Assembly (NCBI GenBank): GCA_964421125.1
Contig: CAYQVD010000001.1
Span: forward strand, 1 to 54,679
DNA length: 54,679 nucleotides
Direction of reading: 5' to 3'
Source: an uncultured Bdellovibrionales bacterium
GTDB lineage: Bacteria; Patescibacteriota; Minisyncoccia; Moranbacterales; DUUL01
Position numbers and translations under genes: made by a program
The notes under the pieces: generated by a model
What the model was told of the DNA's origin: nothing
The model's input: the letters and a program-made list of their open reading frames with translations, nothing else
Database searches by the model: none
In this document: positions 29,053 through 41,828 of the stretch, one piece after another
Layout: the number at the start of each line of letters is the position of its first letter
Numbering within the stretch: position 1 is the stretch's first letter

Positions 29053-29124
29053 TCCCGGGTGGCGCAGCGGTAGCGCAGTTGACTGTTAATCAATTGGTCG
29101 TCGGTTCGAATCCGACCCCGGGAG
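29053..29124 (+). tRNA. trnN: tRNA-Asn(GTT), no encoded CCA; anchor of the downstream array
   Basis: tcccggg/cccggga acceptor, gttga-ctgttaa-tcaat anticodon arm, gtcgg-ttcgaat-ccgac T arm. Confidence 0.96.
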
Positions 29125-29134
29125 CTACGTCTTG

Positions 29135-29160
29135 AAAAGCCTTTATTTAAAGGCTTTTTT
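29135..29160 (+). terminator. tRNA-Asn terminator
   Basis: aaaagccttta-tt-taaaggctttttt. Confidence 0.8.
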
Positions 29161-29171
29161 GTATATAAAGG

Positions 29172-29200
29172 TTGACAAAAAATCTAATAAGTGATATTAT
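29172..29200 (+). promoter_or_regulatory. Promoter TTGACA-N17-TATTAT with TG extension
   Basis: Immediately after the tRNA terminator. Confidence 0.7.
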
Positions 29201-29261
29201 CCAATGTCACAGTTTTTTGATAACAATCAATAATAAAAGTGCAAAAGAAGGGAGACGGGCT

Positions 29262-29900
29262 ATGAATGAACATGACACTTGGGTAACAAAAGGATTGAAA
29301 AAGCTACGCGAAATCGGTGAAAATGGTTTTAAGATTTTGTGCTTAGATTTTGCCGAAGCTATCGTAGATGCTATTAAGTCTCACGAAAAAAGCGAGATGA
29401 AGATTGCCAGGGAAAAAATCGACCGAGCAAGTCGTCGTTTTTCCCTCGGCAGTCTTAAGTCTGCTAAAGATCATCAAGATACAGAGGACGCTTGTAATGC
29501 TATGGCAGGAGTAGAAAGATTCTTCTCAAAGATATCTCTATTTAAGAGAGGTGAGATTGGTCCAAAACAAGCGGTCTCATATCCTTTTTGGATCATAACT
29601 ACTTATACGAAAAAAGGAGATAAACTATCATTGCATGAGATTAAAATTCCCGAAAACTTTATGGGATATAGTGAAGTGATTGATTCGCTTAGACCAAGAC
29701 ACCAGGGAACGATGAACTTACTGGAGATAAACACAATGATTGAAAGCGAACTCAAAGCATACGCTAACACAAAATCTCAAATGATAGACATTGGAGAATT
29801 AAAAAAACAGCAGGAGGAAATAAAAAAGAAGGTCAGTGAAGCTGAGAAAAATTTACGGAGAATGAACATTAATCCAGAGAATCCACAAATCTTCAATTAA
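29262..29900 (+). CDS. Cassette 1 hypothetical protein with C-terminal coiled coil
   Basis: ATG 29262 after GGGAG; own terminator at 29930-29970. Confidence 0.75.
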   Translation: MNEHDTWVTKGLKKLREIGENGFKILCLDFAEAIVDAIKSHEKSEMKIAREKIDRASRRFSLGSLKSAKDHQDTEDACNAMAGVERFFSKISLFKRGEIGPKQAVSYPFWIITTYTKKGDKLSLHEIKIPENFMGYSEVIDSLRPRHQGTMNLLEINTMIESELKAYANTKSQMIDIGELKKQQEEIKKKVSEAEKNLRRMNINPENPQIFN

Positions 29901-29968
29901 TCCATGCCCGCTGTGCAACTATAAAAATTAACAGAGATTGGTCTCAACTGAGAACAATCTCTGTTTTT

Positions 29969-30043
29969 TTACACAAAAGCGGTTCGAACTTCGTCCGCCA
30001 AACGGAGCTACGTCCTGTAAAGCCTTTGTTTAAAGGCTTTTTT
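29969..30043 (+). repeat. Junction repeat R1 (short type)
   Basis: ggttcgaacttcgtccgccaaacggagctacgtcctgtaaagcctttgtttaaaggctttttt; right arm nearly identical to the tRNA 3' flank. Confidence 0.9.
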
Positions 30044-30092
30044 GATACTTTTATTTATTATCCTTTTCCAAATATTTGTATCTACAAAAAAA

Positions 30093-31319
30093 TTACTCGT
30101 ACCTCAAGGCTTCAATAGGGTTAAGCTTAGCAGCTTGCTGTGCTGGATAATAACCAAAGACAATTCCAATTAATGCCGAAACTCCAAACGCTAAAACGAC
30201 TGAATACCAAGTCACTTCAGTCTGCAAAACTCCCATTGCCGTCACGACATAAGAGATTCCCCATCCTAAAGCAACTCCTAGAATTCCTCCGATGAAAGTC
30301 AATACGATTGATTCAGCAAGAAACTGCTTATTGATATCAGCTTTTTTAGCACCAATTGCTTTTCTAAGACCAATCTCTCGAGTTCTTTCAGTAACGGTCG
30401 TCAACATCATATTCATAATTCCAATTCCACCCACTACCAACGAAATTCCAGCAACAGCTCCAAGAAGCATAGTCAATACACCAGTAATAGACGAGGCAGT
30501 TTCGATAATATCAGATTGATTCATAACACTAAAATCTGCATCATCAATACTCGCTATTCCATGTTCACTTAAAAGAATTTCTTCAACTTGAACTTGTGCA
30601 GTATCCATTGAATCTTGATCGATAACTTGAATATTTATAGTCGAAACATATTCACTTCCAGAAAGATACTGTTGGGAAGTAGAAAGTGGAATAAAAATCA
30701 TCTCATCACTACTTCCAAATCCACTACCTCCCTTTTCAACAGTCGTGCCGATTATTGAAAAATCAATTCCGTTTATTTTTATTTTTTTACCAATCACCTC
30801 ATCAATATCAATATCCTCAAATAAATCCTCAACAACACTTGGACCCAAAACTGCTACTTTTGACATTTTCAGGTCATGTTGTTCTGTGATAAAAGAACCA
30901 TTCTCAATTTCCATATTTCTTACTTCCAAATAAGAAGCATTTGTCCCAGCAACAGAAGAGTTAGTATTGTTGCCGTTAATCACTATTTGATACTTCCCAG
31001 ATTCTTCAGGAGCAACATTTTCTATCAAACTTAATCCTGAAATTGCTTCAGCATCAGAAAGCTCCAAAGAGTTAGCACTTCCACTACTTCCTCGAACCTG
31101 AGAACCAGGTCCCTGGCTTTTCCCAGGTCTCACAGTCAATAGATTCGAACCAACTGACTCAATACTCTCCTCAATTGAATTCTGTGCTCCAACCCCAATT
31201 GCCAACATTGCAATTACTGAAGCAATCCCAATCACAATACCCAACATCGTAAGACCAGTTCTTACTTTATTTGAAGTTAATCCACCGACTATTTCTTGAT
31301 ATAAATCTGAAGTTATCAT
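30093..31319 (-). CDS. MacB/FtsX-family ABC permease (copy A)
   Basis: LTMLGIVIGIASV, SLVVGGIGIMNMM, ERTREIGLRKAIGA, LNPIEALRYE. Confidence 0.95.
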   Translation of the reverse strand: MITSDLYQEIVGGLTSNKVRTGLTMLGIVIGIASVIAMLAIGVGAQNSIEESIESVGSNLLTVRPGKSQGPGSQVRGSSGSANSLELSDAEAISGLSLIENVAPEESGKYQIVINGNNTNSSVAGTNASYLEVRNMEIENGSFITEQHDLKMSKVAVLGPSVVEDLFEDIDIDEVIGKKIKINGIDFSIIGTTVEKGGSGFGSSDEMIFIPLSTSQQYLSGSEYVSTINIQVIDQDSMDTAQVQVEEILLSEHGIASIDDADFSVMNQSDIIETASSITGVLTMLLGAVAGISLVVGGIGIMNMMLTTVTERTREIGLRKAIGAKKADINKQFLAESIVLTFIGGILGVALGWGISYVVTAMGVLQTEVTWYSVVLAFGVSALIGIVFGYYPAQQAAKLNPIEALRYE

Positions 31320-31331
31320 CTATTTATTCCT

Positions 31332-39913: not shown

Positions 39914-39985
39914 TTACACAAAAGCGGTTCGAACTTCATCCGCCAAACGGAGCTAGACATATTTTAAGGCTTAACTAAGCCTTTT
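39914..39985 (+). repeat. Junction repeat R8 (short type)
   Basis: ttacacaaaagcggttcgaacttcatccgccaaacggagcta, then aaggcttaactaagcctttt. Confidence 0.9.
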
Positions 39986-40142
39986 CATGTTATATAAGCT
40001 TGACTTATGCCATATATTTTGCTAGTTTACTTTATTAAGTTAACTGACTTAATATACTATGTTTCTTAACAAATAAAGTGTAATTTAATTTTAAATTCTA
40101 TTTTTATAAATAAACACTATTATTATTTGAAAGGATAGGATA

Positions 40143-40430
40143 ATGACACGAGAAGAGTTCGCTCGTAAAATACACTGGGCAAGAATAATCTGGTTCGTTG
40201 GAATCGTAAATCCGTTTATCATGGCTCCATAACTTTTTAAGATGTGGACGATCATGGAAACAGTCGCCTTATCATTTGGAATGTTAGGTATTATCACGTT
40301 TGTCCAGAGTGGATTCGCTTTGCACAGATTTTTTATCCGAGACAAATTCGTTTTTGTTAGTAATGTAGCAGCAGCAGCAATGTCTATTGCCACACTGGTA
40401 TCTATTCCAATAATTCAAATGATAAAGTAA
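40143..40430 (+). pseudogene. SemiSWEET/PQ-loop-like transporter with TAA at 40230-40232
   Basis: MTREEFARKIHWARIIWFVGIVNPFIMAP*LFKMW...SN; the stop sits where Q of the PQ motif is expected; three TM segments. Confidence 0.7.
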
Positions 40431-40468
40431 TTAGTTCATAAATGACCGAATAATAAGGAGGGAAGCTC

Positions 40469-40690
40469 ATGCAAGGATTATTATGTTATTACTTTATAGG
40501 ATTTGTGATTGTTTTTCCTTGGTTCTGCAAAGATGGAGGAGTGAAGGATGGCCTCATAGCATTTCTAGTGCCTACTCCTTTTTGGCCAATTTTTCTCGGA
40601 GTCCCTTTGGCCTGGCCATTCATTTTACTATTCGGATATGAAGAAATCAAAGAAGCACATATAAAACTTTTCAAAAGATTATTCCTGTGA
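40469..40690 (+). CDS. Cassette 9 small membrane protein
   Basis: AAGGAGG SD; hydrophobic with WP motifs; terminator at 40722-40759. Confidence 0.65.
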   Translation: MQGLLCYYFIGFVIVFPWFCKDGGVKDGLIAFLVPTPFWPIFLGVPLAWPFILLFGYEEIKEAHIKLFKRLFL

Positions 40691-40761
40691 TTCATGTAGA
40701 CTGAAAAATCGATTTCAGAAGAAGCCTGTTCAAGATTATAAATCTTGCAGGCTTTTTTTAT

Positions 40762-40929
40762 TTAAACCAAAGCCAAAAGCTGTCCTATTTGTTTTATAGT
40801 AATATCAACGTTCACCTCCCTATTTAACCATTTAAAAGTTCGAAAACTGTCCTGCTCGCCTCGCTGAAGCTTTAGCGAAGTGAGCCAAGCGGAGTAAACG
40901 AAATTAAGCCCTTATTTTAGGGATTTTTT
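40762..40929 (+). repeat. Junction repeat R9 (near-identical to R6)
   Basis: Direct comparison. Confidence 0.9.
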
Positions 40930-41039
40930 GTATAATTTTGATTATTTTTATTTACAACATACAAAATTCATGATATCTTAACTCTTCTATTCCTTGAAAA
41001 CTAAATAATAAATTTATTAATAAATTTTGGAGGTAAATT

Positions 41040-41465
41040 ATGTCGAATAAAATATTAGAGTATTTTTTCGCAGTGACAATAAAAAATTCTGTTTATAGGG
41101 TTGTACTTAATAAGAGCAATTATCCTTTTGCTCATAAACTTGGCTCGCAAAATAAATTGGCCGATGGGATGTTGGCCATATCCAAGAATTTGCAATTCTA
41201 CAATCCTGAAAAACGACAGAGCATGTTGTTTTCGAAAACTTCTGCTAAAAGAAAATTGGAACATGTTCAATGGTGGGGACAGGAAACATCGGATATTGTA
41301 GCCCTTTTTCTCGACGAAAAAGAGGCATCTGATTGTTCTAATTCTCCTAATAAAAAACCGTTTGATCCTCGTTGGATTAAACAAACTGAGAAGGTAATAG
41401 AAGTCATAAGACAAGATTATCCTGATGTCAAAGTTTGTTATGACTCTGGTTTGAGAATTTATTAA
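41040..41465 (+). CDS. Cassette 10 hypothetical protein (paralog of 38846-39271)
   Basis: GGAGG SD; alignable over its full length. Confidence 0.8.
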   Translation: MSNKILEYFFAVTIKNSVYRVVLNKSNYPFAHKLGSQNKLADGMLAISKNLQFYNPEKRQSMLFSKTSAKRKLEHVQWWGQETSDIVALFLDEKEASDCSNSPNKKPFDPRWIKQTEKVIEVIRQDYPDVKVCYDSGLRIY

Positions 41466-41562
41466 TTAGAAGCTCACTTATTAGAAATAGCTATTGAAAA
41501 AGAGAAGAGACCTTATTAAAAAAATATCGTCTCTTTTTTTATATAAAAATAACCCTAGCCCA

Positions 41563-41728
41563 CTAAGTCAAGGCCAAAAGTTAACCTACTTGTTTAATAA
41601 CAATATTTATATTTCTTCCCTATTTAACCGCTTAAAGGTTGAAAATATATTCTGCTCGCCTATCTAAATTCTTGGCGAAACGAACCAATAAAACACAAAA
41701 AATTAAGCCCTTATTTTAGGGCTTTTTT
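41563..41728 (+). repeat. Junction repeat R10 (near-identical to R7); end of array
   Basis: Direct comparison. Confidence 0.8.
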
Positions 41729-41828
41729 GATAGTTAAATCTTATCCATTAAGCAACATTGCTAGAAACCCTTTTCAAATCAAAAAAAGTAGGGTATTATT
41801 GAAACTTAGTGTGTAATATAAAAAAACT

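Follow-up and report, generated by a model that had tools for sequence, protein, structure and literature searches.

RESULTS

A tRNA-Asn gene followed by ten repeats

The DNA analyzed here (the window) is 54,679 bases long and opens a contig of 121,930 bases from a Patescibacteria genome of 1.09 Mb, which is 96% complete and assembled in 35 contigs. It contains a tRNA-Asn(gtt) gene (29053-29125, plus strand; found by ARAGORN and, at 70.9 bits, by the Rfam tRNA model) that anchors a run of ten repeats (R1 to R10), with small groups of genes (U0 to U9) lying between the tRNA gene and the last repeat. We present evidence that the repeats correspond to one arm of the attachment site of large serine recombinases (LSRs), and we interpret the region as a probable island assembled at the 3' end of the tRNA gene. 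On the left it is flanked by a conserved DHH/DHHA1 phosphoesterase gene (27879-28850, plus strand; Pfam DHH and DHHA1) and on the right by a conserved ABC-F ATPase gene (41829-43283, plus strand; Pfam), after which comes a DEAD-box helicase gene (43333-44535, minus strand; Pfam); the ABC-F and helicase genes are both conserved in relatives.

All ten repeats lie downstream of tRNA-Asn and on its strand, as had been reported in an earlier interpretation made from the letters of the DNA (the sequence-only reading), and each of the ten starts that it had listed coincides with a real copy. The repeats take two forms, a short one of ~80 nt (R1, R5, and R8) and a long one of 140-175 nt (R2, R3, R4, R6, R7, R9, and R10). 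What they imitate is the final 22 nt of tRNA-Asn (29104-29125, plus strand), which run from GTTC to AGC and which we regard as a B-type half-site. We refer to the corresponding part of each repeat as the look-alike and to the open frame that crosses it on the minus strand as the tail. Behind the tRNA gene, a spacer and a terminator hairpin (29126-29165, plus strand) are near-identical to the stretch behind R1, agreeing at ~40 of 43 positions as counted by eye.

R1 (29969-30049), of the short form, holds a look-alike at 29982-30008, a minus-strand recombinase tail of 12 codons with its stop, and a hairpin. R2 (33862-34004) is long, with a 33-codon tail, a look-alike at 33938-33964, and a hairpin at 33975-33994, and its core is of the short type. 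In the long R3 (34534-34757), which also has the tail, the look-alike (34610-34636) and hairpin (34647-34666) are followed by a right arm, here called type A, that extends to the start of the next gene; R4 (36078-36300), a divergent long copy with its look-alike at 36154-36180 and its hairpin at 36192-36211, has the same type of arm and closely resembles copies in a relative (G013). The short R5 (37642-37797; look-alike 37655-37681, hairpin 37692-37717) bears another right arm, type B, with a promoter-like site at 37735-37763. A type B arm also follows the hairpin of R6 (38567-38818), a long copy whose look-alike (38643-38700) includes an insertion of ~30 nt; R9 (40762-41013), with the same insertion, is a near-copy of R6 (97.6% over 170 nt). 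R8 (39914-39991; look-alike 39927-39953, hairpin 39966-39983) is short and 98% identical to R1 over 49 nt. Two long copies have decayed, in agreement with the sequence-only reading: R7 (39346-39601; hairpin 39488-39507, type A right arm) and its near-copy R10 (41563-41734; 95.9%), the last repeat before the conserved flank, have a stop inside the minus-strand tail frame and a degenerated core.

The pattern GGTTCGAA-N5-20-GGAGC occurs three times in the window against 0.01 expected, and a 26-nt degenerate core has four matches in the 1.09-Mb genome, all at the array, with none on the opposite strand and none for a control pattern. A hidden Markov model (HMM) built from the seven long copies recovers them at E values of 1e-24 to 1e-52, R1 at 2e-6, and the tRNA end at 0.0015; on the other contigs of this genome it gave no match better than E 0.077. 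A model of the core gave 14 matches in the genome, namely eight full repeats, the hairpin parts of R7 and R10, the tRNA end, and three others, two of which (on contigs C3 and C8) are terminator only and one of which is a weak solitary look-alike (C8:11208-11278; 27-nt span, E 6.5e-4) lying away from any tRNA found on C8. Apart from this weak match, the repeats are confined to the locus and not scattered genome-wide, in keeping with the tie to tRNA-Asn that the sequence-only reading had assumed. Since one short-type core is joined to four differing right-hand sequences (in R1, R2, R5, and R8), the repeats are mosaics that break at GGAGC. The region contains 20 terminator-like hairpins, compared with 7.0 ± 3.2 in shuffled sequence. 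Promoter-like sites are not enriched (57 vs. 50.2 ± 7.7), and the view that the cassettes carry their own promoters relies on a few strong sites only.

The insertion in R6 and R9 occupies 38660-38690 and 40855-40885, is decayed in R7 and R10, and has a GC-rich motif in common with a stretch near tRNA-Leu in another relative (G015; L030, 6232-6330). The type A right arms (34667-34757, 36212-36300, and 39508-39601) each contain, on the minus strand and at a fixed distance behind the hairpin, an inverted sequence of 22-23 nt that resembles the tRNA-Asn 3' end. This arm and the offsets of TTTGAG-like motifs may reflect the remnant of an LSR "FEP" coding region or an inverted, tRNA-Asn-like half-site of 22-23 nt; the stretch on the right of GGAGC may be a half-site of the B' or of the P' type.

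Spacing of the tRNA look-alike

From GTTC to AGC the repeats measure 27 nt and the tRNA 22 nt, and the bases of the T-stem and acceptor differ; the mirroring of the tRNA end described in the sequence-only reading is thus not exact. The same differences led us to reject the idea that they are displaced tRNA 3' fragments of a tyrosine-integrase island. For the geometry we took 53 core-model matches, drawn from the window together with 24 sets of sequences of relatives; 44 of the matches were scorable. The span was exactly 27 nt in 38 of the 44, a count that must be read in light of the fact that the model was built from 27-nt copies and favors that length; it was 22 nt in four true tRNA ends and 58 nt in R6 and R9. 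The sequences of the look-alikes vary widely while their length stays constant. In the portion of Rutherford et al. (PMC3783163) on which we draw, the zinc-ribbon-domain (ZD) motif lies 5 bp closer to the center in the target site (attB) than in the element site (attP). The offset between the tRNA, on the attB side, and the look-alike, on the attP side, equals this published 5-bp rule.

A second, independent case involves tRNA-Gly in the relative G095, where by our own count the look-alike measures 29 nt and the tRNA 24 nt. In that genome (L061/L064, on G095:C3) and in G033 (L062, on G033:C30), which belong to two other families, a gene of the U3 type immediately follows Gly-gcc, the last tRNA in a cluster of five; in G095 this gene is followed by the tRNA-Gly look-alike, forming a single-gene unit at another tRNA. 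Separately, true tRNA-Asn 3' fragments that start in the T-loop occur in the arrays of relatives (L035, 8569-8618 and 12709-12757; L032, 7221-7288). It is probable that tRNA-Asn is also used by another kind of integrase or at another crossover point.

The repeats as the 3' end of a recombinase gene

Read on the minus strand, long copies contain a frame that enters at the GGAGC end, crosses the look-alike, and stops 33 codons past the junction; in R2, R3, R6, and R9 these 33 codons are open and end exactly at the left edge of the repeat. In short copies the frame stops after 12 codons. A six-frame search with the tail peptide gave matches in 19 of 301 genomes of the order, spread over eight families, and nearly all of them lay in short frames. 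One match was the end of a 570-residue frame in the genome G134, in which Pfam identifies Resolvase, Recombinase, and Zn_ribbon_recom domains. The frame of R3 aligns to the C-terminal residues 537-570 of this LSR (17 of 34 identical, E 5e-10), and the DNA of the LSR gene has a look-alike in the matching place, with ~29 of 31 positions identical to R3 by our own count.

The counterpart of this gene is found in G021, where the opposite strand encodes, immediately behind tRNA-Asn, a 547-residue LSR (likewise confirmed by Pfam) whose frame extends into the tRNA. The G021 and G134 proteins are 49% identical over 534 residues and colinear up to a shared ..LL, after which the former continues into residues encoded by the tRNA and the latter into residues encoded by the look-alike. 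An LSR gene adjoins tRNA-Asn in G019 and G023 as well, and G013 keeps a stub of 112 residues. Look-alikes at the far end were found ~21 and ~27 kb after tRNA-Asn and the LSR gene in G021, ~18 kb after them in G023, and 9.2 kb after them on a public contig (L176); this order of tRNA-Asn, LSR, and look-alike was seen in relatives, and the window itself is without an LSR. In G134 and L176 the recombinase gene is completed by the neighboring P arm, that is, the arm of attP which the repeats represent. The LSRs beside tRNA-Asn in the genera g13 and g5 (locus L023 of G023 compared with locus L020 of G021) share only ~25% identity, and this tRNA end is therefore a target of at least two LSR lineages that are distant from each other.

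These comparisons identify the repeats as the P arm, carried by the element, of an LSR attP site, kept in attR or where elements join and including the last 33 or 12 codons of the recombinase, rather than as tRNA 3' ends duplicated by integration, which is how the sequence-only reading had explained them. The repeats are linked to tRNA-Asn and to LSR genes, and both the family of the recombinase and its target are established. The recombinase gene would span attP, with the crossover at or beside the GGAGC shared with the tRNA 3' end.

Genes between the repeats

The units between the repeats are 0.5-4 kb in size, hold one to four genes each, and include none with a recombinase, in line with what the sequence-only reading had said of gene content. 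U0, between the tRNA gene and R1, has one open reading frame (ORF) of 242 amino acids from a TTG start or 212 from the ATG at 29262 (29172-29900, plus strand; no Pfam family), and this ORF stands behind a sigma-70-like site matching at 11 of 12 positions (29172-29200). U1 (30093-33766) lies on the minus strand, opposite to most cargo, and encodes a MacB/FtsX permease, an ABC ATPase, an HlyD-like protein, and a 138-aa ORF; Pfam thus confirmed the ABC operon recognized earlier. The operon (30084-33736) recurs on the other strand 20 kb downstream (50316-53983), where the copy comprises the permease, the ATPase, the HlyD-like protein, and most of the 138-aa ORF, and the two are 88% identical, far closer than core genes are to those of the same-genus relative G001 (75-76%). 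U2 (34096-34431, minus strand) contains short, doubtful ORFs of 111 aa (minus) and 91 aa (plus) with no Pfam family, so that cassettes stand in both orientations: U1, and perhaps U2, on the other strand.

The remaining units are on the plus strand. U3 (34758-36035) is a 425-aa ORF of no known family, which the sequence-only reading had called a putative hydrolase and for which Pfam gave no match; the protein occurs in two of 300 other genomes of the order (G095 and G033), in both directly behind tRNA-Gly. U4 (36301-37522) has two ORFs of 194 and 198 aa, described earlier as lipoproteins; cysteine motifs at their N-termini, read by eye, agree with this, and no Pfam family supports it. U5 (37848-38482) has ORFs of 143 and 57 aa, and U7 (39560-39883) one of 107 aa that overlaps the end of R7's right arm if read from its listed TTG start, neither unit with a Pfam family above threshold. 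U8 (40143-40690) combines a 95-codon, membrane-protein-like frame with a 73-aa ORF. The former (40143-40427) had been taken for a SemiSWEET; it contains an in-frame TAA directly after a proline, has no Pfam match at E ≤ 0.1, and is probably a broken gene. U6 (38846-39271) and U9 (41040-41465) are 141-aa paralogs with 83.6% nucleotide and 76.9% amino acid identity. They belong to a duplication, R6-U6-R7 and R9-U9-R10, in which the repeats are 97.6% and 95.9% identical vs. 83.6% for the gene, and the sequences immediately outside the two copies are unrelated. Pfam found no recombination or transfer genes among the cargo of the window.

The array in relatives and public contigs

Core-model matches occur in 21 of the 27 genomes of the family, and same-strand arrays of at least three copies were found in G013 (behind tRNA-Asn), G041, G023, G012, and G015. 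As the sequence-only reading had expected of a comparison across relatives, the arrays are of the same kind and hold other cargo, and the homology of a shared cassette ends at the repeats. The clearest such case is a unit of ~650 bp, consisting of a promoter, one gene, and a terminator, that is common to G041 (genus g13) and to G015 and G024 (genus g5). It is 85-87% identical between the two genera vs. 67-69% for neighboring core genes, and its homology stops at the repeats on both sides. As judged from such sequence identities, cassettes are exchanged between lineages. None of the nine array loci that we fetched (L031-L039) contains a recombinase.

Homology with G001, of the same genus, runs from the DHH/DHHA1 gene to exactly the 3' end of the tRNA, where the G001 contig ends; the contigs of several relatives end at this exact point. 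Altogether, G001:C64, G005:C1, G015:C33, G004:C53, G003:C36, and G019:C14 terminate at tRNA-Asn or within a few hundred bases of it, which points to a repeated or variable region behind the gene in those populations as well. In G005 and G021 the distance from the DHH to the ABC-F gene is just ~3.3-3.6 kb.

In public data, a loose 27-nt pattern matched 25 species genomes, mostly of lineages titled Patescibacteria, and at least 118 metagenome contigs. The exact short-type core had no match in public metagenome contigs, and the strict long-type core had none in viral contigs; matches came with a looser long-type pattern. Our public set comprised 105 contigs with 110 sites, 108 of them scorable. 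At 88 of the 108 the stop of the tail frame comes after exactly 33 codons, which is no proof of selection because these contigs were fished with a pattern that favors well-kept copies. Fewer than 100 codons are open upstream at 100 sites, 100-299 at one, and at least 300, corresponding to an intact recombinase, at seven. At least two same-strand copies are present on 28 of the 105 contigs; tRNA-Asn is present on 11, in 10 of them upstream and on the same strand; and LSR-like ORFs are present on 20, in 19 of them on the expected strand. Tyrosine recombinases were found on none of the 105. At 12 of the 100 recombinase-less sites a second motif resembling TTCGAAC comes after the hairpin, at a fixed 48-52 nt; R3, R4, and R7 also have this standard arm, and the cargo behind it is unrelated between sites. 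Such a shared end before different cargo fits a propagating family of nonautonomous cassettes better than it fits independent deletions of recombinase genes.

We also inspected Logan contigs of two public DNA runs, X1 and X2, with shared word fractions of 0.96 and 0.71. These contigs break at R1, R2, R6, R8, R9, and R10, and at all eight listed joints the sides measure 20-22 letters. Contig G134:C36 showed no terminal overlap of 20-100 nt that would mark it as circular.

Recombinases elsewhere in the genome

No Phage_integrase or Resolvase match was obtained with Pfam on the 122-kb contig of the window. The sequence-only reading had noted no integrase, phage, or plasmid gene, which holds for recombinases over the whole contig; phage and plasmid genes were not otherwise screened. 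The genome search that it proposed revealed four LSRs and six tyrosine recombinases, all on other contigs; none of the four LSRs has the tRNA-Asn tail. Two LSR genes are themselves associated with tRNA-like sequence: the one at C7:6560-8350 reads into tRNA-Trp, and the one at C27:5441-6966 reads into a tRNA-like T-arm at the contig edge. A search for a far-end tRNA-Trp look-alike of the C7 element with BLAST-short and regular expressions found nothing convincing. Four tyrosine recombinase genes, all in one orientation, are clustered in 23 kb of contig C12 (18847-41297).

DISCUSSION

A proposed mechanism

In our view the stretch 29126-41740 is probably an island that LSR-using elements have assembled at the tRNA-Asn 3' end. 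In the mechanism that we propose, the P arm of attP would comprise the 27-nt look-alike, whose outer GTTCGAA would stand 5 bp further from a crossover region near GGAGC, and, as its second part, the final codons of the LSR gene, which would read across attP. Integration would join the LSR gene to the tRNA, such that the protein ends in 12 residues encoded by the tRNA, and would leave the look-alike and tail at the far end of the element. New elements would enter beside the tRNA and push older ones outward, so that the array would lie on one strand and its newest unit would be the one closest to the tRNA. Each inner junction would combine the P arm of the newer unit with the left end of the older one, a structure that G134 and L176 fit.

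The ten units are most likely nonautonomous, each with a right arm (hairpin and promoter), cargo, and a tail with look-alike. They would depend on the LSR of a related element, acting in trans or in cis, the latter by accretion and mobilization. The units are bounded by attachment sites of a related autonomous element and lack recombination and transfer genes of their own, features like those of cis-mobilizable elements (CIMEs). As an alternative to serial entry, an LSR element might act as a shuttle, excising with a chosen downstream site and leaving cassettes behind, which is the accretion and mobilization discussed in PMC3146451. We infer the order of insertion, the exact point of crossover, the travel of cassettes without a recombinase of their own, and trans-mobilization. 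What stands of the cassette idea in the sequence-only reading is that the recombination sites are tied to tRNA-Asn and that the units are small and recombinase-free; its duplicated tRNA ends and its closeness to integrons do not.

Several observations weigh against this interpretation. By the published rules LSRs recombine attP with attB only, and repeated entry therefore requires that the tRNA-proximal junction serve as a target again; in elements of the staphylococcal cassette chromosome (SCC), the target-proximal junction is reported to do so. An LSR of the tRNA-Asn type was not found in this 96%-complete genome, where the nearest LSR (contig C6) is 47% identical over 357 residues and lacks the tail. 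No excision or circle junction was seen in the short Logan contigs of X1 and X2. The cargo proteins of the window have no blastp match at 1e-3 in the arrays fetched from relatives except for flanking genes. R6 and R9, with their insertion, and the decayed R7 and R10 are probably nonfunctional as sites, and duplication of U1, given its 88% identical inverted copy 20 kb away, could explain that operon as well as import does. To these points must be added the bias of the core model toward 27 nt and that of the public search toward well-kept copies.

A bolder version appears doubtful to us, namely that Patescibacteria possess a widespread, integron-like LSR cassette system with C-terminal tail exchange as a switch of direction or activity. 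In it, an LSR would shuttle in and out of the tRNA-Asn site, dropping or collecting promoter-bearing mini-cassettes with complete att sites, and would carry the conserved 33-residue tail when joined to the P arm and the 12 tRNA-encoded residues when integrated.

Other explanations of the array

A competing account would make the units the scars of complete LSR elements, each of which arrived with its recombinase and later lost it by deletion, so that the array is a graveyard and nothing moves in trans. The stubs and partial LSR frames that adjoin look-alikes (the 112-aa stub of G013 and those of L101, L111, L143, and L144) speak for this, as do the decay of R7 and R10, the broken frame of U8, and the lack of a cognate LSR in the genome. 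Yet recombinase-less units in several genera share a left end at a fixed offset before unrelated cargo, which weakens the scar account because independent deletions would not end at one point. Many units, moreover, measure just 0.3-1 kb, and sites without an LSR far outnumber those with an intact one (100 vs. 7 of 108). On balance we think it somewhat unlikely that the units are such scars. We assign a distinctly lower probability to growth and reshuffling of the array by homologous recombination, duplication, and gene conversion between repeats of 80-250 bp, with no recombinase needed beyond a few initial site-specific insertions and with incoming repeat-bearing DNA joining in the same way. 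Such processes would account for the R6-U6-R7 and R9-U9-R10 duplicates, whose repeats are more alike than the gene they enclose, for R2 as a mosaic of a long left arm and a short-type core, and for U1 as a copy of a nearby operon. They leave unexplained the constant link to tRNA-Asn, the LSR genes on the expected strand, the 27-nt geometry across families, and the single orientation of all copies.

That the repeats are a structured RNA or a regulatory or terminator module, comparable to repetitive extragenic palindromic (REP) sequences, and resemble a tRNA end by chance is very improbable. Every copy does end in a terminator-like hairpin, with the enrichment over shuffled sequence given above, and a short hairpin can be drawn inside a look-alike (33945-33963). 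Rfam, however, returned only the tRNA, the rest being below threshold and three of those terminator-like; the copies are not scattered through the genome; and in relatives the same sequence encodes the C-terminus of a recombinase, which largely refutes this view. The array also recalls a true integron with unusual attC sites, being a series of small cassettes that each end in a repeat like a recombination site, and by our own reading there is some dyad symmetry around TTCGAA. We nevertheless regard an integron as hardly conceivable here: TIGR02249 has a cut-off of 265 bits and its best match in the genome reaches 128, with none on this contig; neither the contig nor the 105 related public contigs contain a tyrosine recombinase; and the cassettes have promoter-like sites and terminators of their own and lie in both orientations. 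On the same grounds the system is not close to an integron, as the sequence-only reading had put it.

Significance and comparison with known systems

Patescibacteria have very small genomes, and few ways in which they gain genes have been recognized. An array of mini-cassettes that is anchored at a tRNA and open to exchange would give these organisms a main place for the turnover of accessory genes and would also explain why their assemblies frequently break at tRNA-Asn. LSRs serve as genome-integration tools, and pairs of recombinase and site that can be read from sequence would for that reason be useful; they can be read here because one arm of attP lies inside the LSR gene and attB is the tRNA end, 5 bp tighter. 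Exchange of the C-terminal tail on integration offers a concrete hypothesis for the control of directionality. Within a limited collection of literature we found no description of such arrays in Patescibacteria, and PMC13059738, a candidate, does not describe them in the sections available.

The closest precedent is formed by the ssrA islands of Dehalococcoides (DsiB), as presented in the excerpts of PMC3146451. There, too, a CcrB-type recombinase of ~540 residues is encoded on the reverse strand beside a tRNA-like target, tandem islands extend downstream between repeats of the target's 3' end, a conserved motif unmatched in the target gene lies just upstream of each repeat, and islands without an integration module are discussed as cis-mobilizable. 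The same excerpts describe a tmRNA target, a crossover inferred in the T-loop, repeats that are true 20-bp copies, and large islands with a six-gene integration module. In contrast, our locus has a look-alike lengthened by 5 nt, a recombinase frame that extends across attP in relatives, and units of 0.5-4 kb without a recombinase. A comparison with SCC is already drawn in PMC3146451.

The array thereby differs less from what is known than the sequence-only reading had supposed. SCC and pseudo-SCC elements, mobilized by Ccr recombinases, also insert by means of an LSR at the 3' end of one essential gene, rlmH, and form tandem series in which each element is bounded by repeats and some lack a recombinase and are moved by recombinases from elsewhere. 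They differ in having a protein-coding target, a size of 20-60 kb, and no tRNA mimicry, and we know of no report of a recombinase tail exchanged on integration of SCC. Like our locus, integrons line up small cassettes in one direction from an anchor, give each a recombination site of its own, and hold cargo that is mostly of unknown function and differs between relatives. Their recombinase is the tyrosine enzyme IntI, their attC sites act as folded single strands, and their cassettes lack promoters and are read from a common one. No IntI-type enzyme and no such cassettes were found here; the repeats had no Rfam match and are explained as LSR gene ends.

Among islands at tRNA genes, the tycheposons of Prochlorococcus (bioRxiv 10.1101/2020.12.28.424599) share with our array, in the passages of that preprint on which we rely, a streamlined genome, growth beside a tRNA by successive integration, the inward displacement of older elements, and the partial tRNAs and degenerate elements that are left behind. 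According to those passages, 910 of 937 tycheposons use tyrosine recombinases, their partial tRNAs are true ones, and they carry replication genes. Here, by comparison, the recombinases belong to the LSR family and the repeats are look-alikes with altered spacing. Islands of the Islander type, made by tyrosine integrases, likewise target tRNA 3' ends and have a resembling fragment at the far end, which in the account available from PMC4383910 is a true tRNA 3' end and which in our array is of different sequence and 5 nt longer. Tandem serine-recombinase islands at a tRNA-like gene, some of them recombinase-less, are an already known principle, as the Dehalococcoides islands in PMC3146451 illustrate. 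New are the host group, the very small size and the number of the cassettes, the recombinase frame that runs across attP with a conserved 33-codon tail, and the visible 5-nt spacing rule.

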